Source of the DNA: Chlorobiota bacterium
Lineage (GTDB): Bacteria > Bacteroidota > Bacteroidia > Bacteroidales > JAADGE01
Assembly (NCBI GenBank): GCA_013152535.1
Contig: JAADGE010000009.1
Span: 1,570 to 65,569 of the forward strand
Reading direction: 5' to 3'
Length of the DNA: 64,000 nucleotides
Below are positions 12,200 through 30,666 of this stretch, piece after piece. The position numbers were made by a program, and so were the translations under genes. Under the pieces are notes generated by a model. It did not search any database and was not told where the DNA came from. It worked only from the letters and a program-made list of their open reading frames with translations. Positions within the stretch are counted from its first letter, which is position 1. Each line of letters starts with the position of its first letter.

Positions 12200-13234
12200 A
12201 TGAAAAATAAGATATTAATTTTTATATCAATTATTGGCTTGACAGCTCTGTTTTCCTCTTGCGAAAAAGACGGAACACAGATTGTAATGTCAAAAGATGT
12301 TATTGCTCCCGAGATTATTTCTTTACCGGATTTAACACTGGTAAGAGGAAACTCTTCAGATACTGTCGAATTTGTGGGAAAATCTGTTGATCCCGGATTT
12401 GATGCCTCTGCAAAATATTTTTTGGAAGCTGCTAAAGCAGGTACTGATTTTGAAAATGTTGTTCAGTTGTATTCCGGTAATCAAATTAAATCGGTAAAAA
12501 TGACTGTAGGTGAATTAAATACGATGTTACTTGATGTATTACCTGAAGATCAAATGTCAGCAGCAGATTATCGAATTCGATGTGATTTGGTTGTTGACGG
12601 CGGAACAGGTGCTGCAGGTACCGGAAACAAACCTTTTGAATATATTTCCGATCCTGTTGAGTCTAATACAACAGTATTCGGTTTATTGCGATTGGATTTA
12701 ATCAATTCCGGTATTGCACAAAAAATTACTTCACCGCAAAGTGACGGCGAATATTCAGGATTTGTGAAATTAAACGTAGCTAACCCTTTTACACTAAAAG
12801 ATCCTGATAACAATGTAGAGTACGGCGGTTCCGGCGGAAATCTTGTCGTTAACGGTGCAGCAATTGTTCCGGGTGCAGACGGATGGCACAAGTTAACTGT
12901 TAATACGACTGATCTTACTTATGATCTGCAACCTTATATGATTGGTTTAGTCGGTTCTGCGACACCAAACGGATGGAATAGTCCCGATCAAAAAATGGAT
13001 TATGATGTTGCAACAAAAACATGGAATATAACATTAGATTTAGTTGACGGTGAAGTTAAATTCCGACTTAATGACGGTTGGGCATGGAATCTGGGGCAAA
13101 CAGACGCGTATGATAATAATCTTGTTGCTGACGGTCATAATATTTCCGTTACAGCCGGAAATTATACAGTAACATTAAAAGTTACGGATTATGACGGAAA
13201 AATTGCTACATTTACGATGGTTAAAAATAATTAA
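12200..13234 (+). CDS. SusE-like outer membrane starch-binding lipoprotein
   Basis: Lipobox LFSSC. C-terminal CBM-like module (GSATPNGWN ... VKFRLNDGWAWNLG). Position directly after susCD. Confidence 0.65.
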   Translation: MKNKILIFISIIGLTALFSSCEKDGTQIVMSKDVIAPEIISLPDLTLVRGNSSDTVEFVGKSVDPGFDASAKYFLEAAKAGTDFENVVQLYSGNQIKSVKMTVGELNTMLLDVLPEDQMSAADYRIRCDLVVDGGTGAAGTGNKPFEYISDPVESNTTVFGLLRLDLINSGIAQKITSPQSDGEYSGFVKLNVANPFTLKDPDNNVEYGGSGGNLVVNGAAIVPGADGWHKLTVNTTDLTYDLQPYMIGLVGSATPNGWNSPDQKMDYDVATKTWNITLDLVDGEVKFRLNDGWAWNLGQTDAYDNNLVADGHNISVTAGNYTVTLKVTDYDGKIATFTMVKNN

Positions 13235-13247
13235 TAATATACAGAAT

Positions 13248-14774
13248 ATGAAAAAAATAGTAAAATATAATATAATTGTATCTTTTGTTGTAATGATTGC
13301 ATTATTAGCATCATGCACAAAAGATTTGACGCAGGTTAAACTTGAGCCTGAAATAGAAACGTCGCAAGTCGAAGATATTTCTTCTTATACGGCGGTAATT
13401 ACAGGTTTTGTTGTTGCTTCAGGTGACGGATATTCTGAAAAAGGAATATGTTATAATAAAACCGGCGATCCTACAATTGATGATGAAAAGATGATATATG
13501 AAGGCGATGATAACAACGCTACGTTTAAGGTAACTCTTACCGGATTAGATTACAACACAAAATATTATGCACGTGCTTACGGAATAAATACAAGCGGTGT
13601 TGTTTACGGTTCAGATACTACGTTTACAACTTTACCTATTTTAGCAACCCTTACGACAGATACCGCTACCGATATTACCGGATTCTCCGCAACTTCCGGC
13701 GGTGAAATAACAGATGCTGGAGGTGCTGAGATTACGGACAGAGGCGTATGTTGGAGTACTTTGCCTAATCCCGTAATTGATAACGACAGTTTAACTTCCG
13801 ACGGTACCGGAATTGGAACTTTTACGAGCAGTATTACAGGTTTAAACGGACTGACAACGTATTATGTCAAAGCCTATGCTATAAGCTCTGCAGGTGTGTC
13901 TTACGGAAATGAGATTAGTTTTACGACACCGATTGCTCATATTACGTGGTATGTTCCGGGCGATCATCAAGGATGGAATCCGGCAACGGCACCGACTGTT
14001 GAAAATACCGTCAGCGATCCAAATACACTTTCCGGTTATGTTTGGTTGAATACTGAATTTAAATTTACACCGGCTCCTAATTGGGATAACAGTTGGGGCG
14101 ATGACGGTGCAGACGGTACTTTAGATGCCGGAGGTGCTAACATTGCGGTGCCGTCTCCCGGATATTATTTAATAACGGTTGATTTTACCGCAAAAACTTA
14201 TACTTTAACTAAAACCGATTGGGGTTTAATCGGTGGTGCAGTTCCTCCTTATGATTGGACAGTTGATCAAAATATGACATACAGTTCCGTTACAGGAACA
14301 TGGCTCTTAACGCTTTCGTTAAATTCAGGGGATATGAAATTCAGAGCAAATGATGAATGGGTCATAGATTACGGAGATACCGGAGCGGACGGTTCGCTTG
14401 AACAGGGTGGTGATAATATACCTGTTGCAACTGCCGGAGATTATACCGTGACATTAGACTTATCACATCCTAACAATTATACTTACAGTCTTAATCAATG
14501 GGGAATTATAGGTTCTTCCGTTCCTCCGTATGATTGGACAGCAGACGTAAATATGAGTATTGTTCCCGGAACAAATCAATGGACTGTAACGGAAGATTTA
14601 GTGGTCGGCGAATTTAAGTTCAGAGCAAATGATGCTTGGAACGTAGATTACGGAGACACCGGTGCGGACGGTTCACTTGAACCGGGCGGTGATAACATAC
14701 CCGTTACAACTGCAGGAAATTATACCATTACAATTGATTTGTCAACTTTAACTTATACGATGGTACAAAATTAG
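13248..14774 (+). CDS. SusF-like outer membrane starch-binding lipoprotein with three tandem CBM-like modules
   Basis: Start moved to ATG 13248 (MKKIVKYNIIVSFVVMIALLASC lipobox). Two Ig/Fn3-like repeats (KYYARAYGINTSGVVYGSDTTFTT / TYYVKAYAISSAGVSYGNEISFTT). These are followed by three copies of W(G)xIG..VPPYDWT...FKFRANDxWxxDYGDTGADGSLExGGDNIPV.TAGxYT. Confidence 0.65.
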   Translation: MKKIVKYNIIVSFVVMIALLASCTKDLTQVKLEPEIETSQVEDISSYTAVITGFVVASGDGYSEKGICYNKTGDPTIDDEKMIYEGDDNNATFKVTLTGLDYNTKYYARAYGINTSGVVYGSDTTFTTLPILATLTTDTATDITGFSATSGGEITDAGGAEITDRGVCWSTLPNPVIDNDSLTSDGTGIGTFTSSITGLNGLTTYYVKAYAISSAGVSYGNEISFTTPIAHITWYVPGDHQGWNPATAPTVENTVSDPNTLSGYVWLNTEFKFTPAPNWDNSWGDDGADGTLDAGGANIAVPSPGYYLITVDFTAKTYTLTKTDWGLIGGAVPPYDWTVDQNMTYSSVTGTWLLTLSLNSGDMKFRANDEWVIDYGDTGADGSLEQGGDNIPVATAGDYTVTLDLSHPNNYTYSLNQWGIIGSSVPPYDWTADVNMSIVPGTNQWTVTEDLVVGEFKFRANDAWNVDYGDTGADGSLEPGGDNIPVTTAGNYTITIDLSTLTYTMVQN

Positions 14775-15776: not shown

Positions 15777-17336
15777 ATGAATGAGACAGTTATAATAATC
15801 GGAGTACTTGGTTTAGTAATCGGATTTTTTGCGGGATACTTTTTGAAAATAAAAGCGATGCATAAAAAAGCAGATGAAATTGTCAAAGAAGCTGAAGCTG
15901 AAGCCGAAGTCCTGAAAAAAGAAAAAATTCTGCAAGCAAAAGAAAAATTTCTTCAATTAAAAGAAAAACATGAAGAAATAATAAACGAAAAAAATAATAA
16001 AATTGCAGAAGCCGAAAATCGTTTAAAACAAAAAGAAAACAGTTTAAATCTTCGTAAAGAAGAATTTAAAAGCAGATTTAAAGAATTTGAAATTTCAAAA
16101 CAAGAAGTTAATGCGGTAAGAGAAAATCTTACAATGCAACTCGAAATTGTTGATAAGAAAAACGAAGAACTTGAAAAAATAAAAAGACAGCATATTGAGA
16201 AACTCGAAAATATTTCCGGCCTATCAGCAATTGACGCAAAATCCGAATTAATAAAATCATTAAAAGCCGAAGCAAAAACCGAAGCAATGGCTCATATTAA
16301 CGATATTATAGAGGAAGCAAAACTTACGGCAAATAAAGAAGCTAAAAAAATAATAATTAAGAGTATTCAACGTATCGGAACTGAGGCAGCAATTGAAAAT
16401 GCCGTTACGGTTTTTCATATCGAAAACGATGATATGAAGGGGCGTATAATAGGAAGAGAAGGAAGAAATATCAGAGCACTCGAAGCTGCTACCGGAATTG
16501 AAATTATTGTTGATGATACACCGGAATCTATAGTTTTATCAAGTTTTGACCCTATCCGCAGAGAAGTTGCCAGATTGGCATTGCATCAATTAGTTACCGA
16601 CGGACGAATCCATCCGGCACGAATTGAGGAAGTGGTCGCAAGAACTCGGGAACAATTAGAAGAAGAAATTTTGGATACCGGTAAAAAAACCGCTATTGAT
16701 TTGGGTATTCACGGCTTGCATCGTGAAATACTTCGCTTGGTAGGTAAAATGAAATACCGTTCATCATACGGACAAAACTTATTACAGCATTCACGGGAAG
16801 TTGCTAAGTTATGTGCTGTAATGGCTTCTGAAATCGGATTAAACGTTAAACTTGCAAAACGAGCAGGATTACTTCATGATATAGGAAAAGTACCTGATGA
16901 AGAAATTGAAATACCGCACGCAATATACGGCATGAAATTAGCCGAACGCTATAAAGAAAAACCGGAAGTGGTAAATGCTATAGGAGCACATCACGATGAG
17001 GTTGAAATGACAAGTTTAATTTCTCCGATTGTGCAGGTTTGTGATGCTATTTCAGGTGCCAGACCGGGTGCTCGAAGAGATGTTGCAGAATCGTATATTA
17101 AACGAATTAAAAAACTCGAAAGTATTGCCGCCGAAGAAAGAGGAGTTGTAAAAACTTATGCTATTCAAGCAGGCAGAGAACTTCGTGTAATAGTCGGCAG
17201 CGATAAAGTAACCGATAAAGAAATTGAAGAATTATCGTTTAATATTGCAAAAAAAATTGAAGAAGAAATGACTTATCCCGGTCAGGTAAAAATTACGGTA
17301 ATTCGTGAAGTGCGAGCAGTAAACTATGCAAAATAA
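15777..17336 (+). CDS. rny: ribonuclease Y
   Basis: N-terminal TM helix, long coiled coil, KH motif [17 protein letters not shown] motif LLHDIGK, 519 aa. Confidence 0.93.
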
Positions 17337-17342
17337 AAAATT

Positions 17343-17368
17343 AACAGCTCTGAATGAGCTGTTTTTTT
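17343..17368 (+). terminator. hairpin plus T7 run after rny (terminator or attenuator)
   Basis: AACAGCTC / GAGCTGTT stem, TGAAT loop, T-run 17362-17368. Ends 11 nt before the next ATG. Confidence 0.6.
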
Positions 17369-17379
17369 AACTAAATAAA

Positions 17380-18513
17380 ATGAAAAATATTCAGATGGTT
17401 GACCTTAAAGGTCAATATCAAAAAATTAAAACCGAAATAAATGATTCAATTTCGGAAGTGATAGAATCTGCAACATTTATTAACGGATCGAAAGTTAAAG
17501 AATTTCAACGAAATCTTGAATCGTATTTAAAAGTAAAGCATGTTATTCCATGCGGAAACGGAACGGACGCTTTGCAAATAGCTCTGATGGCTCTGAACTT
17601 AAAGCCCGGAGATGAAGTAATTACGGCTGATTTTACGTTTATTGCAACAGTTGAAGTTGTGGCATTGCTCGGATTAAAATTGAAATTTGTTGATGTAAAT
17701 CCCGAAACTTTTAATTTGGATGTTTCTCAAATTGAAAAAGCAATAACTCCCGATACAAAAGCAATCGTTCCTGTTCATTTGTTCGGGCAGGCAGCTGATA
17801 TGGACGTAATTATGACGATTGCTGAAAAACATAAGTTATATGTTATCGAAGATACAGCACAAGCAATCGGTGCTGAATACACTTTTAATAACAGAAAAAC
17901 AAAAAAACTCGGAACAATCGGGACTGTCGGTTGTACTTCATTTTTTCCCTCAAAAAATCTTGGCGGGTACGGTGACGGCGGTGCATTATACACTAATGAT
18001 GATAAACTTGCAGAAAAAATAAGGCAGATAGCAAATCACGGTTCAAAAGTGAAATATTTTCATGATACAGTAGGTGTAAATTCCAGATTGGACTCAATTC
18101 AAGCAGCAATTTTAAATGTTAAATTAACATATCTTGACAATTATATTTCAGCGAGGCAAAAAGCTGCTGAATATTATGATAAAGCATTTAAAAATCATCC
18201 GAATATTATTATTCCTTTCAGAAATGATAAATCAACCCATGTTTTTCATCAATATACTATTAAAGTTCAGGGAATTGACAGAGATGAACTGAAAGAATTT
18301 TTGAATAAAAACAAAATCCCTGCAATGATTTATTATCCTTACCCTTTACATCTTCAAAAGGCATATAAATATTTAGGATATAAAGAAAATGATTTTCCGG
18401 TAAGCGAAAAATTATCAAAAGTAGTTTTATCTTTGCCGATGCATACGGAATTAACCGAAGAACAATTAAAATATATTACCGAAAAAGTATTAGAATATGC
18501 CGACAGAAAATAA
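17380..18513 (+). CDS. DegT/DnrJ/EryC1/StrS family aminotransferase (WbpE-like)
   Basis: 377 aa. The PLP-lysine region is [16 protein letters not shown]. Operon with WbpD/WbpB/WbpA-like genes. Confidence 0.85.
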
Positions 18514-19078
18514 TTATTTTGCTCACAAAACTGCCGTTATAGATGAAGCTTGCGAAATTGGCGAAGGCACAAAAATTTGGCATTTTTCTCATATAATGTC
18601 CGATTGTAAAATTGGTAAAGAGTGCAATATCGGACAAAATGTTGTCGTATCTCCCGGTGTTATTCTCGGGAAAAATGTTAAAATTCAAAATAATGTTTCA
18701 ATTTATACAGGTGTGATTTGCGAAGATGATGTTTTTCTGGGACCTTCAATGGTTTTTACGAATGTAACAAATCCGAGAAGTGCTGTTATCAGGCGCGGAC
18801 AATATGAAACAACCATTGTTAAAAAAGGTGCATCAATCGGTGCAAATGCAACCATTGTTTGCGGACATAATATCGGAAAATTTGCATTTATAGGTGCCGG
18901 AGCGGTTGTAACAAAGGAAGTGAAAGATTATGCTTTGGTGGTCGGAAATCCGGCAAAACAAATAGGGTGGATGAGCGAATACGGTCAGCGATTGAATTTT
19001 GACGAAAACGGAACGGCTGTTTGTTCTGAAAGTAAAGAGATATATAAGCTTGAAAATGATAATGTTATAAAGTTGTAA
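18497..19078 (+). CDS. hexapeptide-repeat N-acetyltransferase (WbpD-like)
   Basis: Left-handed beta-helix repeats ([50 protein letters not shown]), 193 aa. Overlaps the upstream gene by 17 nt. Confidence 0.8.
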
Positions 19079-19102
19079 TAATAAAAATTTTAATTTTGTG
19101 CT

Positions 19103-20197
19103 ATGATAACTAAATTAGAAGTAAAAAAATTAAACGGAAAGTTTGATTTTGACTTTAATTTTTATCCTGATATAAATATATTTACCGGAAAAAACGGTTG
19201 CGGTAAAACAACTGTATTAAAATTAATCTGGTATTTGGTTTCCGGTAATATTAAGCAAATCTTAAGAGAAATTAATTTTGAATATGTTTATTTTAAATCT
19301 GATATAACAGAAGCTAAATTAGAAATAGTAGGGGATGGAAATGAAAAAATTGTAAATGGTTTTTACAATACAATAGGGGGAGGTATTAATTTTAAAAAAA
19401 ATTTAGTAAGAGATGTTAACAATGGATTGATTTTTAGAAGAGATAAAAGTGGTGAAAAAAGTTTGTTCTTTCCTACTTTCAGAAGAATTGAAGGTGGATT
19501 TGCCATTAATGACAGGAAAGAAGAAGTAATTATTCATGAAGGACAACGTATTGTTGTGGGCAGAGGTTTAGATAATTTAAATTCTGCTTTAACAGAATTA
19601 GCAAATAGAATTTCTCCTAATAGGAATAATAGGTTTATTGCTTCAATATCAACAACAGATATAATTGCTTTGTTAAATAATAAATATACAGAAGTTTTAG
19701 AAAAAATTAATAAAAAAGAAATAGAACAATCTGCTGTTATTTTATTGAAAACCAGAAACAGTAAGCATAATATTAAAATATTACAAGAGATTGAAGATCT
19801 TGTTAAAAAGACAGATGCAGAAAAAAGTATTTTAATGAAACCTTTTACGGTTTTATCTGATTTAATTAAAGAAATTTTTTCTGATAAAAGCATACAAATA
19901 ACTAAATCTTTAACTTTGGGTGAGACAAAGGATGCAATCACATCGGATAAACTGTCTGCCGGAGAAAAACAAATGCTTAGTTTTTTATGTTATAATTTCT
20001 TTTCGGATAATACTGCAATATTTATTGATGAACCGGAACTGAGTTTACATACGGATTGGCAAAGAATTCTTTTTCCTACTTTGTTGGAACAATCAACAGA
20101 TAATCAATTTTTTGTTGCTACACATTCACCTTTTATTTATTCACAATTCCCTGACAAAGAGCATATTTTGGATATTGATAAAGGAGGAGATAAATAA
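19103..20197 (+). CDS. ABC/OLD-type AAA ATPase, AriA-like
   Basis: Walker A GKNGCGKTT, ABC signature LSAGEKQ, Walker B AIFIDEPELSLH, H-loop VATHSP, with a helical insert between Walker A and the signature. Partnered with a DUF4435 gene. Confidence 0.7.
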   Translation: MITKLEVKKLNGKFDFDFNFYPDINIFTGKNGCGKTTVLKLIWYLVSGNIKQILREINFEYVYFKSDITEAKLEIVGDGNEKIVNGFYNTIGGGINFKKNLVRDVNNGLIFRRDKSGEKSLFFPTFRRIEGGFAINDRKEEVIIHEGQRIVVGRGLDNLNSALTELANRISPNRNNRFIASISTTDIIALLNNKYTEVLEKINKKEIEQSAVILLKTRNSKHNIKILQEIEDLVKKTDAEKSILMKPFTVLSDLIKEIFSDKSIQITKSLTLGETKDAITSDKLSAGEKQMLSFLCYNFFSDNTAIFIDEPELSLHTDWQRILFPTLLEQSTDNQFFVATHSPFIYSQFPDKEHILDIDKGGDK

Positions 20198-20198
20198 A

Positions 20199-20996
20199 AT
20201 GAGAACAAATCCTCTGACACCTGATATATTAATTAAAACACTTAAAAGATCAAGTTTGCCGACTGTTCTTGTTGAAGGCAAAGATGATTTTTTAATATAC
20301 CGAAAATTTCAAAATAAAATCGGAGCAAGATTTGTTTCTTTTTTAGGTTGCGGAGGAAGAAATACTCTTTTGAATATATATGACAGAAAAAAAGAATTCA
20401 GTAATAAAAAAGTTATGTTTATTGCCGATAAAGATATGTGGGTTTTCTCGTCAGTCCCTGAAAAATATAATGATATTATTTTTACAAAAGGGTACAGTAT
20501 TGAAAATGACCTCTATGAAGACGGGCAACTTTTTTTAAACGAAATACTTGAAAGTAACGAAAAGGAAAGGTTTAAAATTATTATTAATCAACTTATTTTA
20601 TGGTTTGCTTTTGAAGTTAATAAAATTAAATCTGAAGAAGAATATAATACTGAATTTTCAGAAGTTACTATTTTATCAAAAAACACTTTTGACAGAGAAT
20701 TAAATAAATTTACTGATAATTTTATTTCAAAAAGAGGAAAAGAAGATGCTGATAATGAAATTGTTAAAAAAATTGTCGATAGCTTTGTTCATAAGCTAAG
20801 AGGTAAATTTATTTTTCAAATATTTGAATTGCTTTTTCAAGAAAGAAAAAACAAAAAGGGAAAAGTAACTTATACGAAAGAACAACTTTTTGATTTGTGC
20901 TATACTGAAGGAATACGTGATAAAAATAATGAAACAAATATGAACAGATTAGTTAATGAATTATTAAAATTTAAGAATTATAAGAAAAATAATTAA
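20199..20996 (+). CDS. DUF4435/TOPRIM-like protein, AriB-like
   Basis: Start moved to ATG 20199, 1 nt after the upstream stop and preceded by AAGGAGG at 20181-20187. Motifs LVEGKDDFLIYRKF (TOPRIM Glu), FIADKD (DxD) and KGYSIENDLY are typical of DUF4435. Confidence 0.7.
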   Translation: MRTNPLTPDILIKTLKRSSLPTVLVEGKDDFLIYRKFQNKIGARFVSFLGCGGRNTLLNIYDRKKEFSNKKVMFIADKDMWVFSSVPEKYNDIIFTKGYSIENDLYEDGQLFLNEILESNEKERFKIIINQLILWFAFEVNKIKSEEEYNTEFSEVTILSKNTFDRELNKFTDNFISKRGKEDADNEIVKKIVDSFVHKLRGKFIFQIFELLFQERKNKKGKVTYTKEQLFDLCYTEGIRDKNNETNMNRLVNELLKFKNYKKNN

Positions 20997-21940
20997 TGAA
21001 AAACTTCGCACTAATAGGAGCAGCAGGATACATAGCCGTAAGGCACATGCAAGCCATAAAAGAAACAAGAAATAATTTAATTGCCGCACTTGATAAGTTC
21101 GACAGTGTAGGAATAATTGACAGTTATTTTCCTGAAGCTGATTTCTTTACGGAATTTGAACGTTTCGACAGACATATCGACAAATTACGTCATAACGAAA
21201 ATAAACAGATTGATTATGTAAGTATTTGTACACCAAATTATTTGCATGATTCTCATATTCGTTTTGCATTAAAACAACAAGCAGAAGCTATTTGTGAAAA
21301 ACCCTTGGTACTTAATCCTTGGAATGTGGATGCTCTTGCAGAAGTTGAAAAAGAAACAGGCAAAAAGATAAATACAATTTTGCAGTTACGTTTGCATCCG
21401 AGTATTATAAAATTAAAAAAAGAAGTAGAAAACGGACCGAAAGATAAAATCTACGATATAGATTTAACGTATCTGACATCTCGCGGTCGTTGGTATTTTA
21501 TCAGCTGGAAAGGCGATATGCAAAAATCCGGCGGAGTTGCAACCAATATAGGCGTGCATTTTTTTGATATGCTTTCGTGGATTTTCGGTACTGTAAAAGA
21601 AAATATTGTTCATGTTTCGGAAGAATCAAAAGCTGCCGGTTTGTTGAAATTAGAAAGAGCCGACGTACGTTGGTTTTTAAGTGTTGATTATAATAACATT
21701 CCTGAAGAAATAAAGAAAAGCGGGCAAAGAACTTATCGCTCAGTTACAGTTAACGGAAAAGAAATTGAATTCAGCGGCGGATTCACCGATTTACATACCG
21801 TAAGTTATCGTAAAATTTTAGAAGGGAAAGGTTTCGGTCTTACAGATATACGTTCAACCATTCAAACTGTTTATGAAATAAGAAATGCCGTACCGATTGG
21901 TTTAAAAGGAGACTATCATCCGTTATTAAATAAAAAATAA
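20996..21940 (+). CDS. Gfo/Idh/MocA family oxidoreductase (WbpB-like)
   Basis: N-terminal Rossmann segment FALIGAAGYIAVRHMQAI, then EKPLVLN, 314 aa. Its ATG overlaps the upstream TAA (TAATG). Confidence 0.8.
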   Translation: MKNFALIGAAGYIAVRHMQAIKETRNNLIAALDKFDSVGIIDSYFPEADFFTEFERFDRHIDKLRHNENKQIDYVSICTPNYLHDSHIRFALKQQAEAICEKPLVLNPWNVDALAEVEKETGKKINTILQLRLHPSIIKLKKEVENGPKDKIYDIDLTYLTSRGRWYFISWKGDMQKSGGVATNIGVHFFDMLSWIFGTVKENIVHVSEESKAAGLLKLERADVRWFLSVDYNNIPEEIKKSGQRTYRSVTVNGKEIEFSGGFTDLHTVSYRKILEGKGFGLTDIRSTIQTVYEIRNAVPIGLKGDYHPLLNKK

Positions 21941-21958
21941 AATTTTAATTAAAACACA

Positions 21959-23248
21959 ATGTATAATAAATTAATCAGAGATAAAGCAACAATTTCAGTT
22001 ATCGGATTAGGTTATGTCGGTTTACCGATTGCTCTTGAATTTTCTAAAATAATCAAAGTTATCGGTTTTGATATTAATGAAGAACGTGTTGAAATGATGC
22101 GTAATCATAAAGATCCCAGTAAAGAACTTTCTTCTGAAGATTTTGAAGGAACAAATATTCAATTTACTTCTAAGTCTGAAGATTTAAAAGAAGCTGATTT
22201 TCATATTGTTGCAGTTCCTACACCGATTAATGAACACAATCAGCCGGATTTGACTCCTTTGCTCGGGGCTTGTCATATTGTAGGAAAAAATATTAAGAAA
22301 GGTGATTATATTGTTTTTGAATCAACCGTGTATCCCGGTTGCACCGAAGAAGATTGTGTGCCTATTCTGGAAGAAGAATCCGGTTTAACATATTGTGAAG
22401 ATTTTAAAGTCGGATACTCTCCCGAACGTATAAACCCGGGTGATAAAGTTCATACACTTACGACAATAACGAAAATTGTTTCCGGCTGCGATGACGAAGC
22501 ATTGGATAATATCGCAAATATTTATGATATTATTCTGAAAAACGGGACACACAGAGCAAGTTCAATAAAAGTTGCCGAAGCTGCCAAAATTATTGAGAAT
22601 ACCCAAAGAGATGTTAATATTGCATTAATGAATGAGCTTTCAATTATTTTTAATAAAATGGGAATTAATACCTATGAAGTCCTTGAAGCAGCCGGAACAA
22701 AGTGGAATTTCTTGAATTTTACTCCCGGTTTAGTCGGCGGACATTGTATCGGTGTTGACCCTTATTATCTGGTTCATAAAGCGAAAGAACTCGGCTATCA
22801 TCCGCATATTATTAATGCCGGAAGATTTGTAAATGATTCTATGGGCAGTTATGTTGCTAAACAAACTGTTAAACGAATTGCAGCTCAGGATAAAAATATT
22901 CGAAATGCAAAAGTATTGGTAATGGGCTTAACATTTAAAGAAAACGTAAGTGATATCAGAAATACAAAGGTAGTAAATATTGTAAAAGAATTGAAGACCT
23001 ATAAAGTTCTTGTTGATGTTGTTGATCCGTATGCCTCCGTGGAGGAAGTAAAGGAAGAGTATAACATTGATTTGTCAGAAAATATTGATACTAATTACGA
23101 TGCCGTTATTGTAGCCGTAAATCATAAACAATATATTGAATTAGATGAAGATTTTTTCAAAAAACATACATCTGAAAACGGTATTGTAATTGACGTAAAA
23201 GGTTTCTTAAAAGATAAAATACAAACCATGTTGTATTGGAGTTTATAG
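21959..23248 (+). CDS. nucleotide-sugar 6-dehydrogenase (WbpA/TviB-like UDP-GlcNAc dehydrogenase)
   Basis: VIGLGYVGLPIALEF NAD fold, catalytic region GGHCIGVDPYY, 429 aa. Confidence 0.85.
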   Translation: MYNKLIRDKATISVIGLGYVGLPIALEFSKIIKVIGFDINEERVEMMRNHKDPSKELSSEDFEGTNIQFTSKSEDLKEADFHIVAVPTPINEHNQPDLTPLLGACHIVGKNIKKGDYIVFESTVYPGCTEEDCVPILEEESGLTYCEDFKVGYSPERINPGDKVHTLTTITKIVSGCDDEALDNIANIYDIILKNGTHRASSIKVAEAAKIIENTQRDVNIALMNELSIIFNKMGINTYEVLEAAGTKWNFLNFTPGLVGGHCIGVDPYYLVHKAKELGYHPHIINAGRFVNDSMGSYVAKQTVKRIAAQDKNIRNAKVLVMGLTFKENVSDIRNTKVVNIVKELKTYKVLVDVVDPYASVEEVKEEYNIDLSENIDTNYDAVIVAVNHKQYIELDEDFFKKHTSENGIVIDVKGFLKDKIQTMLYWSL

Positions 23249-23322
23249 AATATTTTCTTTGCTAATGACTTCAAAACCTCTGATTATTATTTAAAAAATA
23301 CCGTGCTGATGTGCGGCATTTT

Positions 23323-25247: not shown

Positions 25248-26967
25248 TTAATTTTGAATTATAATTTTTTGAACGGAAACAGTATTTTTTACTTGTATTT
25301 TTATAAAATATATTCCCGGAGAAAAGTTTTTAATACAAATTTCGGAAGTGTTTTGTTTGCTTAAGATTAAATTTCCTCTGATATCATATATCATAATTTT
25401 ATTTGCTGTTTCCGATAATAAAATAAAATCAGTTGCGGGATTAGGATATATTTCGATATTGTTTTCGTTATTTTTTTCAACACTCACAGGCTTGCAATTC
25501 CATTCAGCTGTCCAGCCGCTTCTTACGGTTGCACCGTCGGAATAAAATTTTAGAGTTAAAGCGTTTCCGCTTGCTTCAACATAACCGGGGCTTGCCGTGC
25601 CCGAATATCCGCCTATTAACGGAGCATTTGTGTTGTATCCGTCATAAATCCATAAAGAATCATATCCGGTTTCCAGTTTAAACGAGCTGAAACTTAAAGA
25701 AAGTAAAGAAACATTGTCCGGTGCAATTGTAAAAATATAATCTTCATGGTTATAATGATTCCTGTTAGGACCTCCCATATCGTAAATCGTATAATTGCAG
25801 GGAGTTACTGAACAGTCTGTAACAAATCCCACATTTCGGAATATCCGTCGTCATATCCTAAAGCCCAAATTCCTATTCCTGCTAAATCTTGATGTTGAAT
25901 GACATCGTATTTATATTTCATGGTTTTTTTCGTATCAACCCAAGCCTGATGCCAATTTCCGCCCGAATAATATGTGTAATAACTGCACATACTGTTTTCA
26001 TTAAGTTTTCTTTCATCATAATAAGACGATGTATTATTTTTAATTGTTTTGATTGTTCTTGCTGTTCCTTTTGCCGGTGGTGAAGACGGCACATTTTCGC
26101 TTTCCGTTTTCCATTCGTATCCGTAATACGGAATACCGCAAAGTAATTTTTCTTTCGGAATACCGGCATATAAATAGGTGATTATTGATTTTGAAATATT
26201 GTAATCGAATGTATTCATTGTATAAAGTTGACCGGAAGGACCTGCAATACTGCTGCCGGGCCAATAATAATCATAAGCCATTATAATAAAAAGGTCAATA
26301 TAATCTCTCAGCAACGGAATATTATAAATATTATGCCAATCAACGGCAGGCAGAGCGATACTCACTTGAGAACCGGGAATGCTCGAATGAAATTGGTCGG
26401 CAAGATTTACAAGAAAATTATTCAATTGTACAGCTTCACTATCCGGAACAAGTTCAAAATCTATATTTACGCCGTCGGCATTTCTGTATTCGATCAAAGT
26501 AAGTAAATTGTCAATCAGGTTTTGTTGTGCCGAAGCATTCGCAAAAAATGCAGCATGATTATTAAAAAGTGTAACGCATAAATTTACTCTGACATTATTC
26601 GCTTGTGCAGAATCAATAACGGCGGCAGTTTTCCAGTTGTGCGTATTTACAGAATCCCCTGTGAGATAATCAACTTCATAAGAAAAAAAGATAAATCGGA
26701 TAATAAGTTCCAGTGATAATTCAAATATGAATTTCCGGACCAATAGGGATACCAGCCGAAAACCAGTTTTTGTAAATTGCATTTATCTTTACCGACGGGT
26801 AAAATTGATTTAATTTCGGTAAGTTTTTTATATTCTTTCGGAGAAAAAATTGCTAAAGAATCATAATATTCTTTTTGCTCTTTATGTGCAGAGTGCCTTA
26901 CATTTTTTTGAGAAAAAATATTAGCTGAAATAAATATCACTAAAATTGTTATTAAATTAAATTTCAT
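25248..26967 (-). pseudogene. GH18 (chitinase-like) - CUB - T9SS C-terminal-domain secreted protein, split into three frames by two frameshifts
   Basis: ORFs 26967-26647, 26782-25805 and 25832-25248 read as one protein. Order: signal peptide, LVFGWYPYWSG...LLSDLSFF|SYEVDY, GH18 motif DGVNIDFE, GIWALGYDDGYSEMW, CUB-like YDSLWIYDG, then T9SS CTD IEIYPNPATDFILL...GIYFIKI. Shift 1 is at the A7 run 26683-26689. Shift 2 lies within 25808-25850. Confidence 0.65.
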
Positions 26968-28128: not shown

Positions 28129-28202
28129 GGACCCGTAGCATAATTGGATAGTGCACCTGACTACGGATCAGGAGGTTGGGGATTCGAATTCCTCCGGGTT
28201 CA
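28129..28202 (+). tRNA. tRNA-Arg (anticodon ACG)
   Basis: Hand-folded 74-nt cloverleaf. Acceptor GGACCCG/CGGGTTC, D-stem GCAT/GTGC, anticodon stem CCTGA/TCAGG with loop CTACGGA, T-arm GGGGA-TTCGAAT-TCCTC, discriminator A. Confidence 0.9.
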
Positions 28203-28480: not shown

Positions 28481-29155
28481 TTATCTTTTGAAATGTTCTT
28501 GATAGTATTTAATATTACCTCCATATTTCTTAATAAAAGCTTCTTTTGAAATATATCTGCCTTCTCCGTAGCCATAATCTATACCTTCTTCTACCCAAAA
28601 TAAATTTTCATCTCCGAAATCAAAGAAGATATTTCTTTTTGATTCTTCCCAACTTTTTTTCGGATAGCTCCACCTAAATCTTAAATATTTTTTTAAATTT
28701 TTGGAAATTTCATAAGATCTTTTTTTTTGATCATATTCAAAATATCTATTTTCTGTCTTAATCTCAAATCTTTCTTTAAAAGATATACCGTTTATTATCC
28801 ATAACATTTTATTACCATAAAATTCTTCTCTTTCTCTTATTATTTTTTTCGAGATTGGAGAATTCTGCAATTCAATCACAACTTTATTTTTAGTATAAAT
28901 ATCAGCAAAATGTTTTTTCCCGTCTTTCTCAAGGACAACTTCAGTATAATCTTTTCCAAAAGTCATTTTCCAATGATAATGCCATTCAGACTCCGGTTCG
29001 TACCAGCTTTCGCAACTACCATTCTTATAGTGAGACCAATGATGAATATTTATTTCACCGCACTTTGGAAATAATTTTTGTTCACATAAAGGACACTTTC
29101 CTGTTAATCCTTTTTTTGCTTCAATTTTTTCGTTATTTACTATAGCATATAACAT
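28481..29155 (-). CDS. CoiA-like family protein (zinc-finger plus PD-(D/E)xK-type nuclease fold)
   Basis: CPLCEQKL...HHWSH zinc-finger-like N-terminus. Also ESEWHYHWK, FADIY...VVIELQNSPIS and REREEFYGNKMLWIING, which match the CoiA family signature. Confidence 0.65.
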   Translation of the reverse strand: MLYAIVNNEKIEAKKGLTGKCPLCEQKLFPKCGEINIHHWSHYKNGSCESWYEPESEWHYHWKMTFGKDYTEVVLEKDGKKHFADIYTKNKVVIELQNSPISKKIIREREEFYGNKMLWIINGISFKERFEIKTENRYFEYDQKKRSYEISKNLKKYLRFRWSYPKKSWEESKRNIFFDFGDENLFWVEEGIDYGYGEGRYISKEAFIKKYGGNIKYYQEHFKR

Positions 29156-29163
29156 AAAATAAA

Positions 29164-30666
29164 TTATGCAATTTTTATAAAGTCAAACTCATATTCAAAA
29201 AGTTCAATATTAGGAAGAGATTTAACTAATGTTTTTAACTTATTCGTAGCTTCTTTAATGCAAATAATTCCTTTTACAGCCTGACCCGGTTTTGCTAAAT
29301 TATTTATTGTCCAATTAATATAATTTTGTATTTGCTCCACAACTTCAATGTCTGATTTTCCTCTTTTTAATTCAATAATTACATAAGAGTTATCTTCTAA
29401 ATTTTGTGTTAGAATATCCATTCTTCCGGTATCTGTTCTGAATTGACGACCATATTTGCTTGGGTCGTCAGCTTTACTATATATTTTAAGGTATTTTCCA
29501 AAAGTTTGCTTATTTTTTTGTAATCTGATTTCTAATAAGTCTTCTAAAATTTCTTCTAATTCCAATTGAATACCGGATGTCTTTTTATTCAAAGGAGAAG
29601 GAACAAAAGTTATTTCTTTTTCATCTTCAATAATCTTCTCACTCTCAAGAACAAGGTTTACCTTTGATGGTTCTATCCTTTTTTTATGTTTCTTTTTAAG
29701 TTTATTTATTGAATCAATTTCATTTTGTAATAATTTTTTACTTTTTGTTTTAGTCTTTAAAATTTCTATTACTTCCAATGCCTTATTAAATTCACCGGTA
29801 ATTTTATATACTCTTATTTTATTCCAATAAGGGTATAAACCGTCCTTTCCTAACTCAATACTTTTGTCAAGGTAGAATAATGCGTCATTATACATTTTTA
29901 ATTTATATAAACTATACCCCATTAAATTATTAACATGGGCAATATCGGTTTTTATATTTAAACTCTTCTTAAGAAATTTTACTGTGTTTTTGTAGTCCTT
30001 GATTAAAGAATAACTTTCAGCCAAATATAGGAAAATTGTCACAAAAAAGTCTTTCTGAATATCTTCAGTAAATTCAAGTGTTTTGTGAAAATAGCTTATA
30101 GCTATTCTATATTTTTTTGTAGCAAAGTATGTATAGGCAATATACAGAAAGGCATACCAAAAATTATTATCTATATCGGTTGCTTTATCAAATTCTTTAA
30201 TTGCTTGAGTATATTTTTCTTCAATTATAAGTTTATATCCTTCTAAGAATGGGATATATTCTTTGTTAACTGATTTAAATTTAAGAATATTAATAATTTC
30301 AACTATCAGTTCAAAAGCAACTGACTCATCCAATAAACCCAAGAAATAAATTAAATTGCTTAAATTCTCATAGTTTTTGTCATCAATTAAATTACTTCCG
30401 TATTTATCGACAAAAAGTTTTTTATAGTGTTCAATTTTTTCTTCCTTTTTCAGTTCAATATTCAAACGTAACCTATCGACAACAAACTGGTTATCCGGTA
30501 TTTTTGAAAACACATCATTAAGTTTATTAATATCTTCAATCGGTTTATGCTTTTGTGCGAAAAAAGTATCCAGCACTTGTGAGAGCTCCTCTTTTAGTTT
30601 AATATCATTAAGGTTTTTCTTAAACTGTTCAAGTAAGTTAAATAATTTGCTTATATCTTTTTTCAT
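29164..30666 (-). CDS. TPR-repeat protein with a C-terminal NucS/Shedu-like PD-(D/E)xK nuclease domain
   Basis: Central TPR-like repeats (AIKEFDKATDIDNNFWYAFLYIAYTYFATKKYRIAISYFHKTLE, ...YNDALFYLDKSIELG...). C-terminal GRMDILTQNLEDNSYVIIELKRGKSDIEVVEQIQNYINW gives a D...ExK...Q..Y arrangement as in NucS/DUF4263-type nucleases. Confidence 0.6.
   Translation of the reverse strand: MKKDISKLFNLLEQFKKNLNDIKLKEELSQVLDTFFAQKHKPIEDINKLNDVFSKIPDNQFVVDRLRLNIELKKEEKIEHYKKLFVDKYGSNLIDDKNYENLSNLIYFLGLLDESVAFELIVEIINILKFKSVNKEYIPFLEGYKLIIEEKYTQAIKEFDKATDIDNNFWYAFLYIAYTYFATKKYRIAISYFHKTLEFTEDIQKDFFVTIFLYLAESYSLIKDYKNTVKFLKKSLNIKTDIAHVNNLMGYSLYKLKMYNDALFYLDKSIELGKDGLYPYWNKIRVYKITGEFNKALEVIEILKTKTKSKKLLQNEIDSINKLKKKHKKRIEPSKVNLVLESEKIIEDEKEITFVPSPLNKKTSGIQLELEEILEDLLEIRLQKNKQTFGKYLKIYSKADDPSKYGRQFRTDTGRMDILTQNLEDNSYVIIELKRGKSDIEVVEQIQNYINWTINNLAKPGQAVKGIICIKEATNKLKTLVKSLPNIELFEYEFDFIKIA

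Follow-up and report, generated by a model that had tools for sequence, protein, structure and literature searches.

A stretch of 64,000 nt from contig JAADGE010000009.1 (positions 1,570 to 65,569; here called the window) raises the question of why a pair of genes that resembles a phage-defence system should lie within a set of genes for nucleotide-sugar synthesis, and of what the pair might do there. The first gene (19103–20197, forward strand) encodes an ATP-binding cassette (ABC) ATPase of 364 aa similar to AriA, and the second (20199–20996, forward strand) a predicted DUF4435/TOPRIM nuclease of 265 aa similar to AriB. A preliminary description, made from the sequence alone, had proposed that they form an AriA/AriB-type pair captured by a wbp operon; the two open reading frames (ORFs) were found with exactly the coordinates, strands and lengths given there. 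By homology, the pair is an AriA/AriB-type cassette of the phage anti-restriction-induced system (PARIS), an ordinary member of a known family that is unusual only in its location. It is also likely to be a functional abortive-infection cassette of this type (class 4 of the OLD family). This reading is based on the homology, the intact catalytic residues, the purifying selection and the cassette behaviour described below, from which we infer antiphage activity.

Relationship of the gene pair to PARIS

The ATPase matched the Pfam models AAA_21 (72 bits) and AAA_15 (61 bits), and thus passed the bit-score rule used to detect the ATPase of PARIS (at least 32 bits for AAA_15 or at least 27 bits for AAA_21; Rousset 2022, PMC9122126). 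In PADLOC, the best family was AriA (E = 2.1e-27), with the PtuA (3.5e-19), GajA (1.2e-14) and MAD3 models far behind. AriA was also the best sequence match in the PDB (2.2e-19), and a profile built from 35 homologues matched it at 1.1e-29, the next protein other than AriA being found at 9.6e-12. An AlphaFold (AF2) model of the ATPase, with a mean predicted local distance difference test score (pLDDT) of 79, showed an ABC core, a two-helix coiled coil at residues 184–261 (helices 184–219 and 224–261) and a disordered loop at 130–157 containing Arg and Lys. In a Foldseek search of the PDB with this model, the top 15 matches were all AriA chains (E 8.7e-16 to 7.8e-12; query-normalized template modelling score, TMq, 0.49–0.62), followed by the PtuA of retrons and Septu and by GajA (5e-11 and weaker; TM ∼0.4).

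The motifs quoted for this protein in the preliminary description (GKNGCGKTT, LSAGEKQ, IFIDEPELSLH and VATHSP) were all present in its translation. The Walker A motif (G29–T36), an FPTFRR motif (122–127), the signature LSAGEKQ (284–290), Walker B (D309/E310) and the H-loop histidine (H341) were invariant in the alignment of the 35 homologues, residues K35 and S285/G287/E288 among them. More than 3000 relatives of the ATPase were found, and the NCBI annotation already labels it as ATP-binding. The ATPase gene contains an antisense ORF of 135 aa (19534–19941, reverse strand), most probably the product of chance in a sequence rich in AT.

For the second protein, the only family matched in PADLOC was AriB (profile PDLC02983; 33.9 bits, E = 8.1e-9). 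Its translation contains the LVEGKDDFLIY, FIADKD and GYSIENDLY motifs noted earlier, and an alignment of 46 relatives showed E26, G27, D77, D79, G98, E102, N103, W135, G202 and K203 to be invariant, with D30 conserved in at least 90% of the sequences. When the protein alone was compared with the PDB by phmmer, nothing was found; the profile of the 46 relatives matched AriB only, marginally (E = 0.073 and 0.13), with the LVEGxxD, DxD/E and GxSxEN motifs in register. Alignment to the N-terminus of AriB by hhalign (E = 3.4e-5) mapped E26, D30, D77, D79 and E102 to E26, D30, D88, E90 and E122 of AriB, the published metal-binding residues of that protein (PMC11464382). The AlphaFold model of the second protein had a pLDDT of 93, and its only PDB matches with E ≤ 0.001 in Foldseek were AriB chains (8ux9_A, 1.7e-4; 8v46_D, 8.3e-4); the C-terminal TOPRIM regions of OLD proteins came next. 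Among viral structures (BFVD) the same model found nothing at E ≤ 0.001, an RloB-like protein reaching 0.13.

Profile similarity, on which the preliminary description had let its proposal stand or fall, was therefore found for both proteins, to AAA_21 and AAA_15 for the first and to AriB for the second. The two checks it had suggested for this, PADLOC and structure comparison, returned AriA for the ATPase and AriB for the nuclease, as did the PDB sequence and profile searches. The classification of the second protein as a DUF4435-type TOPRIM protein held in part. An identical protein is named ‘DUF4435 domain-containing protein’ at the NCBI, 592 DUF4435 relatives were found, many of them with a precomputed match to PF14491, and 25 of the 46 family members matched this model (best E = 6.7e-10). 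The assignment is thus based on the AriB profile of PADLOC, on the protein's family and on its structure; a direct match to the current Pfam DUF4435 model was missing.

Several observations weigh against identifying the pair as PARIS. The published detection rule asks for DUF4435 (PF14491) with at least 27 bits in the second protein (Rousset 2022, PMC9122126), and scans of this protein against Pfam and NCBIfam gave no match to the current PF14491 model; its sole Pfam match was to OLD-like_TOPRIM (E = 0.026). The structural match to AriB, in spite of a probability of 1.0 over 306 aligned columns, was loose (TM 0.38, root-mean-square deviation 14 Å), and likeness at the sequence level was limited to the N-terminal ∼110 residues. 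Finally, the ATPase is ∼100 aa shorter than AriA, and the AriA segment with R116 and R119 falls in a gap of the family profile in the N-lobe. These two arginines are central-pore residues required for the sensing of Ocr, and poor conservation of the pore has been reported across the 11 PARIS clades (PMC11464382). A system with another trigger would accordingly be expected to differ in this loop. The trigger of the window pair is probably different from that of Escherichia coli PARIS, given the missing pore loop, and should not be taken to be of the Ocr type.

The comparison was made with the AriA/AriB of the P4 satellite of E. coli B185 (PDB 8ux9, 8v45–8v49). Both are two-gene cassettes with the same order, an ABC ATPase followed by a DUF4435/TOPRIM protein. 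The ATPase motifs are kept, the Walker B glutamate E310 corresponding to E393 of AriA, as is the acidic set of the TOPRIM domain, and a coiled-coil insertion is present in both ATPases. They differ in size, AriA having 464 aa and the AriB chains 308–316 aa. In the profile alignment, residues 2–134 of the window ATPase corresponded to 6–163 of AriA, and residues 282–352, which include the Walker B/H-loop region, to 366–437. From these spans, the shortfall can be placed in the N-lobe (∼25 aa), the helical insert (∼55 aa) and the C-terminus (∼15 aa). In the nuclease, AriB E90 is replaced by Asp (D79), and R31, which contacts AriA, by Phe. Identity to the E. coli proteins is only 14–20%, and the window pair is chromosomal and internal to an operon, whereas E. 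coli PARIS resides in a satellite or prophage hotspot. The suggestion that the pair represents a compact, uncharacterised clade is thus right as to compactness; as to the rest, the family is very large, already labelled at the NCBI and matched by existing PARIS profiles.

Some of these features would also suit an OLD-family ATPase with a TOPRIM partner that defends the cell in a manner unlike PARIS, for example by nicking DNA as OLD or Gabija do, or by sensing a cellular perturbation. OLD-like_TOPRIM is the only current Pfam match of the second protein and is matched by 29 of its 46 relatives, OLD structures follow AriB in the Foldseek list, and the trigger loop of AriA is not conserved. However, AriA and AriB were clearly the best matches for the two proteins in every search, and the split two-gene architecture is that of PARIS, not that of the fused OLD or GajA proteins. 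An OLD-like mode of action therefore seems unlikely. The ATPases of Septu and retrons (PtuA) and of Gabija (GajA) belong to the same ABC superfamily with a helical insertion. In PtuAB the partner is an HNH nuclease (PtuB), unlike the DUF4435 TOPRIM protein found here, and no reverse transcriptase or msr-msd that would indicate a retron lies near the pair; a scan with Rfam detected no RNA in its region. In Gabija and in class 1 and 2 OLD proteins, TOPRIM and ATPase are fused, while here they are on separate proteins, and in place of a UvrD-type helicase (GajB) the neighbours are wbp genes. The order ATPase then DUF4435 was observed in every homologous locus examined, with the genes overlapping or at most 5 nt apart. 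PARIS, detected by the rule of adjacency between the ATPase and DUF4435, has been reported in 5.2% of genomes (PMC9122126).

Insertion into the wbp operon

The GC content of the pair is 0.268 for the ATPase gene and 0.249 for the nuclease gene, compared with a gene mean of 0.326. At third codon positions (GC3) the values are 0.159 and 0.165, against 0.250 ± 0.033 (z = −2.7 and −2.5), and are the two lowest among the 49 genes of the window; the impression, first gained by eye, that the pair is more AT-rich is thereby borne out. To test for insertion, a genome collection was scanned with the WbpB-like protein, which gave 80 loci, and these were screened by tblastn with the genes of the window. 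The wbpD gene lay directly upstream of wbpB in 61 of the 80 loci, the gap being at most 150 nt in 47 of these 61, and the ATPase/DUF4435 pair was found in none of the 80. The nearest relative (locus L009; protein identities of 97% for rny, 93% for wbpE, 90% for wbpD, 93% for wbpB and 94% for wbpA) has an empty site, with a clean 35-nt spacer between wbpD and wbpB. Distant homologues of the pair lie in unrelated contexts, next to hypothetical genes, toxin-antitoxin-like genes or a reverse transcriptase. These include pairs with 61–66% identity (L005 and L007), 44–64% identity (P0017) and 39–50% identity (L095–L097); the family ranges over Bacteroidota, Caldilineaceae, Gemmatales, Solibacter and Paenibacillus. 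In view of the empty sites in the closest relatives, the unrelated contexts of distant homologues and the deviant GC3, the pair is an insertion by horizontal transfer into the wbp operon. The opposite pattern envisaged in the preliminary description, a pair present with native composition in the wbp operons of all relatives, was not observed.

These data also bear on whether the pair might serve the Wbp, glycan or type IX secretion system (T9SS) pathway itself, for example as an ABC ATPase for export or regulation. The position within the operon and the recurrence at the same junction in at least four lineages (see below) are what speaks for such a housekeeping role. Against it, all 80 reference operons, including that of the nearest relative, lack the pair, homologous pairs are found in other, unrelated surroundings, no transmembrane partner is present, and the composition is foreign. 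A housekeeping role is thus extremely improbable, being effectively refuted by the pattern of presence and absence.

The closest homologues of the pair (68–74% identity) all lie at the wbpD-wbpB junction, in at least three other lineages. They comprise L001–L004, a Bacteroidales metagenome-assembled genome, and L103/L104 and L105, whose short flanks encode the C-terminus of WbpD and the N-terminus of WbpB. The 3′ junction sequence ATAATTAATGAAAAAC is common to the window and L001, which indicates a single original insertion. A scan of JGI metagenomes for close relatives found only copies with at most 44% identity, and no further same-site carriers. In tblastn searches, GenBank phages gave no match and plasmids two weak ones (31–38% identity); in IMG/VR, six distant relatives with 30–33% identity were detected. 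This clade is not notably virus-borne.

The distribution of the cassette does not follow the relatedness of its hosts: the carrier L001 is further from the window (85% identity in rny) than the empty-site genomes L009, L011–L013 and L018. When the window was compared with L009, the proportion of synonymous differences (pS) was 0.51 in wbpD and 0.20–0.31 in rny, wbpE, wbpB and wbpA. Nucleotide identity fell from ∼93% to 84–88% over wbpD and the start of wbpB (∼100 nt). This raised divergence at 18497–19078 and 20996–∼21100 is suggestive of a footprint left by local recombination around the point of insertion. Compared with L001, the pair had a pS of 0.47–0.50 and the flanking genes one of 0.62–0.66; across all four carriers, the pS of the pair was 0.27–0.56. 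The outlying wbpD and the lower pS of the pair relative to its flanks suggest, without proving it, that homologous recombination in the conserved flanking wbp genes brought in or removed the cassette. Against this stands the fact that the pS values are near saturation and the genes very AT-rich, so that the recombination reading is suggestive only. In addition, wbpD is about equally distant from outgroups in the window and in L009 (pS ∼0.5), so that either of the two may be the recombinant, and the cassette may have been gained by the window or lost by L009.

The ratio of nonsynonymous to synonymous divergence (dN/dS) between the window and L001 copies was 0.18 and 0.21 for the two genes of the pair, and 0.07–0.10 for the wbp genes, which indicates that both genes of the pair are under purifying selection, weaker than that acting on the wbp genes. 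The higher ratio, together with the low GC3, could be read as a sign of a decaying, non-functional remnant of a past insertion. Both reading frames are nevertheless intact, all catalytic residues are present and dN/dS is well below 1; moreover, four carriers that have diverged from one another have intact frames, although for two of them the contig is short and includes little of the flanks. On these grounds pseudogene status was rejected, and decay has a negligible likelihood. Among related Bacteroidota lineages, a subset maintains the cassette as a polymorphism of presence and absence.

Host operon, expression and proposed mode of action

The genes around the pair agree with the description of a wbpE-wbpD-wbpB-wbpA operon. 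The first gene encodes a WbpE-like DegT aminotransferase (17380–18513; Pfam DegT_DnrJ_EryC1, 7.3e-122) and is followed by that for a WbpD-like hexapeptide acetyltransferase (18497–19078; Pfam Hexapep), which forms the left flank of the pair. The right flank is the gene for a WbpB-like oxidoreductase of the GFO/IDH/MocA family (20996–21940; Pfam), the protein used to collect the 80 related loci, and the last gene encodes a WbpA/TviB-like UDP-GlcNAc 6-dehydrogenase (21959–23248; NCBIfam TviB 4.3e-148, NDP-sugar dehydrogenase 2.4e-119). All lie on the forward strand, so that the four activities of the Wbp pathway, with specificities presumed from the Pfam and NCBIfam families, are brought together in one co-oriented cluster. 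The gene for RNase Y (rny; 15777–17336) is located directly upstream, an arrangement shared by 22 of the 80 related loci. In Porphyromonas gingivalis, WbpA, WbpB, WbpD and WbpE are needed for anionic lipopolysaccharide (A-LPS), to which T9SS cargo is attached through a sugar, the Wbp/Vim product (PMC4031482, PMC7468200), as the preliminary description had correctly stated.

At the 5′ junction, a 24-nt spacer (19079–19102, forward strand) separates the stop codon of the wbpD-like gene from the ATG of the ATPase gene. Between the end of the ATPase gene (20197) and the ATG of the nuclease gene (20199) there is a gap of 1 nt, and at the 3′ junction the stop codon of the nuclease gene overlaps the start of the wbpB-like gene in the sequence TAATG (20994–20998, forward strand). 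Terminator-like hairpins after rny (17343–17363, forward strand) and after the wbpA-like gene (23301–23316, forward strand) bracket wbpE to wbpA and are the likely upstream and downstream boundaries of the transcription unit; no terminator-like site adjoins the pair. The short spacers (24, 1 and −1 nt) and the lack of such a site make it likely that the pair is co-transcribed with the wbp genes. The upstream hairpin is a strong one (8 pairs followed by a T-run), directly after rny and 17 nt before the wbpE-like ATG; no recognisable promoter was found between it and that ATG, and expression of the wbp genes may rely on an rny transcript that is read through or processed. A scan for sigma-70-type promoters showed no enrichment (43 found, 39 expected), and the Bacteroidetes-type pattern TTTG..TAnnTTTG occurred about as often as chance predicts and never near the pair.

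The sequence AAGGAGG, which resembles a Shine-Dalgarno site, was found 11 nt before the ATG of the second gene (20181–20187, forward strand), as noted earlier together with the 1-nt gap and the TAATG overlap. It lies inside codons of the ATPase gene for a conserved D-K-G-G. Of 9 family loci, 8 share AAAGGAG; the complete GGAGG is found in L005 and L007 as well as in the window. This conservation may result from constraint on the coding sequence, from translational coupling, or from both. The sequence TAATTTTG, which lies 4 nt upstream of the start codon of the ATPase gene, has no conserved counterpart in L001.

If the pair works as PARIS, its mode of action can be taken over by homology from studies of the E. 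coli system (PMC9122126, PMC11464382, PMC12409363). An oligomer of the ATPase would be a scaffold that holds the TOPRIM nuclease inactive; in PARIS, the complex from which AriB is released has the composition AriA6:AriB3. Binding of a phage protein to the ATPase would release the nuclease, which would then dimerise and cut host RNA; in E. coli PARIS, the RNA cut is tRNA (PMC9122126, PMC11464382, PMC12409363). Cutting would stop translation and the infection would be aborted. The cassette, which has no mobility genes of its own, would be read as part of the wbp transcription unit, and homologous recombination in the wbp flanks would probably account for its spread or loss.

What is unusual here is the operon-internal location next to rny; both proteins match existing PARIS profiles, and the current understanding of PARIS is unchanged by the pair. 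The locus provides a clear case from nature of a defence cassette that resides, without mobility genes, in a housekeeping operon, and the occupied and empty alleles in close relatives, with the recombination footprint in the flanks, bear on how defence genes spread outside classical islands. To our knowledge, PARIS has been characterised only for the satellite-borne system of E. coli. The present member, from an uncultured lineage similar to Bacteroidota, has a compact sensor without the Ocr-sensing loop; its family could help to separate the core scaffold of AriA from its trigger-specific parts.

Other cargo at the junctions of the operon

In three relatives, a different cassette was found between wbpE and wbpD (L021:3342–4163, L033:1251–2006 and L040:5544–6302). 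Its first gene encodes a small nucleotidyltransferase (Pfam Polbeta/NTP_transf_2; Polbeta 4e-8 and 6e-9), and its second a protein of 151–152 aa with an R-N-E-I-T-H motif (Rx4H, HEPN-like) and no match in Pfam or PADLOC. This cassette looks like an MNT/HEPN toxin-antitoxin pair. Its presence is of interest for the possibility that the window pair is itself a selfish addiction or toxin-antitoxin cassette with no real antiphage role, the loss of which would be harmful, either because the nuclease is a toxin or because excision disturbs wbpB expression. In keeping with that possibility, the Pfam name of AAA_21 is ‘putative AbiEii toxin, Type IV TA system’ domain, the overlap of stop and start codons with wbpB could make an imprecise deletion costly, and the nucleotidyltransferase with its Rx4H partner shows that toxin-antitoxin-like genes do occupy other junctions of this operon in relatives. 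In E. coli PARIS, however, deletion of either gene is not toxic and a toxin-antitoxin mechanism has been excluded (PMC9122126), and the closest relatives lack the cassette and have clean junctions, so that its loss is tolerated. Addiction is thus a poor explanation for the pair, improbable beside the PARIS-type function.

Genes for small four-helix-bundle proteins were found at three of the junctions: between wbpD and wbpB (L011:7599–7955), between rny and wbpE (L027:4705–5109, L040:3966–4325, L086:4684–5082, L021:1813–2187 and L038:5373–5759) and between wbpE and wbpD (L038:6981–7442). The two genes scanned, at wbpD-wbpB in L011 and at rny-wbpE in L027, matched Pfam 23S_rRNA_IVP (the better E value being 9.5e-31, the other 8.2e-24), and the others were recognised by sequence resemblance only. 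The copy at wbpD-wbpB in L013 seems disrupted, with an in-frame TGA and no ORF of at least 50 aa. Seven loci (L026, L027, L028, L033, L040, L086 and L021) have a gene for a NAD-dependent epimerase of 347–350 aa at wbpD-wbpB, accompanied in L021 by two further nucleotide-sugar genes; the junction therefore also takes cargo related to the pathway.

This arrangement resembles the core defence hotspots of Pseudomonas aeruginosa (PMC10250203) in that variable, defence-type cargo lies between core genes and is polymorphic for presence and absence. It differs from them in that the cargo occupies intergenic junctions within one biosynthetic operon, on a smaller scale, with cassettes of only one to three genes at the junctions; the cassette in the window is, in addition, co-oriented with the operon, and its stop codon overlaps the next start. 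A more speculative reading joins these observations: the junctions of rny-wbpE-wbpD-wbpB-wbpA would be a landing pad for small defence or selfish cassettes that lack mobility genes and are moved by recombination of the flanks, and the PARIS-type pair, a compact ATPase with a different class of trigger, would be deliberately hard-wired and TAATG-coupled to synthesis of the T9SS/A-LPS linking sugar. Taken as a whole this is rather doubtful; if true, it would mean that immunity is co-regulated with a glycan that is likely to be a phage receptor.

Elsewhere in the window, a gene pair of low GC content (0.26–0.28; 28481–30666, reverse strand) adjoins a tRNA gene (28129–28202, forward strand). One of its genes codes for a TPR protein of 500 aa whose C-terminal domain is a NucS_C/PDDEXK nuclease and which matches the PADLOC candidate system PDC-S02 (8.9e-25), the other for a 224-aa protein with a CoiA_N domain; the pair may be a second defence-type insertion. 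Two further genes are informative about the organism. One (25248–25832, reverse strand) encodes a CUB-domain protein that bears the C-terminal sorting domain of the T9SS (Por_Secre_tail, 2.6e-14), and the other (13191–14774, forward strand) a SusE/F-like protein; in relatives, SusC/SusD/SusE are found upstream. The sorting domain and the SusE/F-like protein point to an organism of the Bacteroidota type, despite the NCBI label ‘Chlorobi bacterium’.

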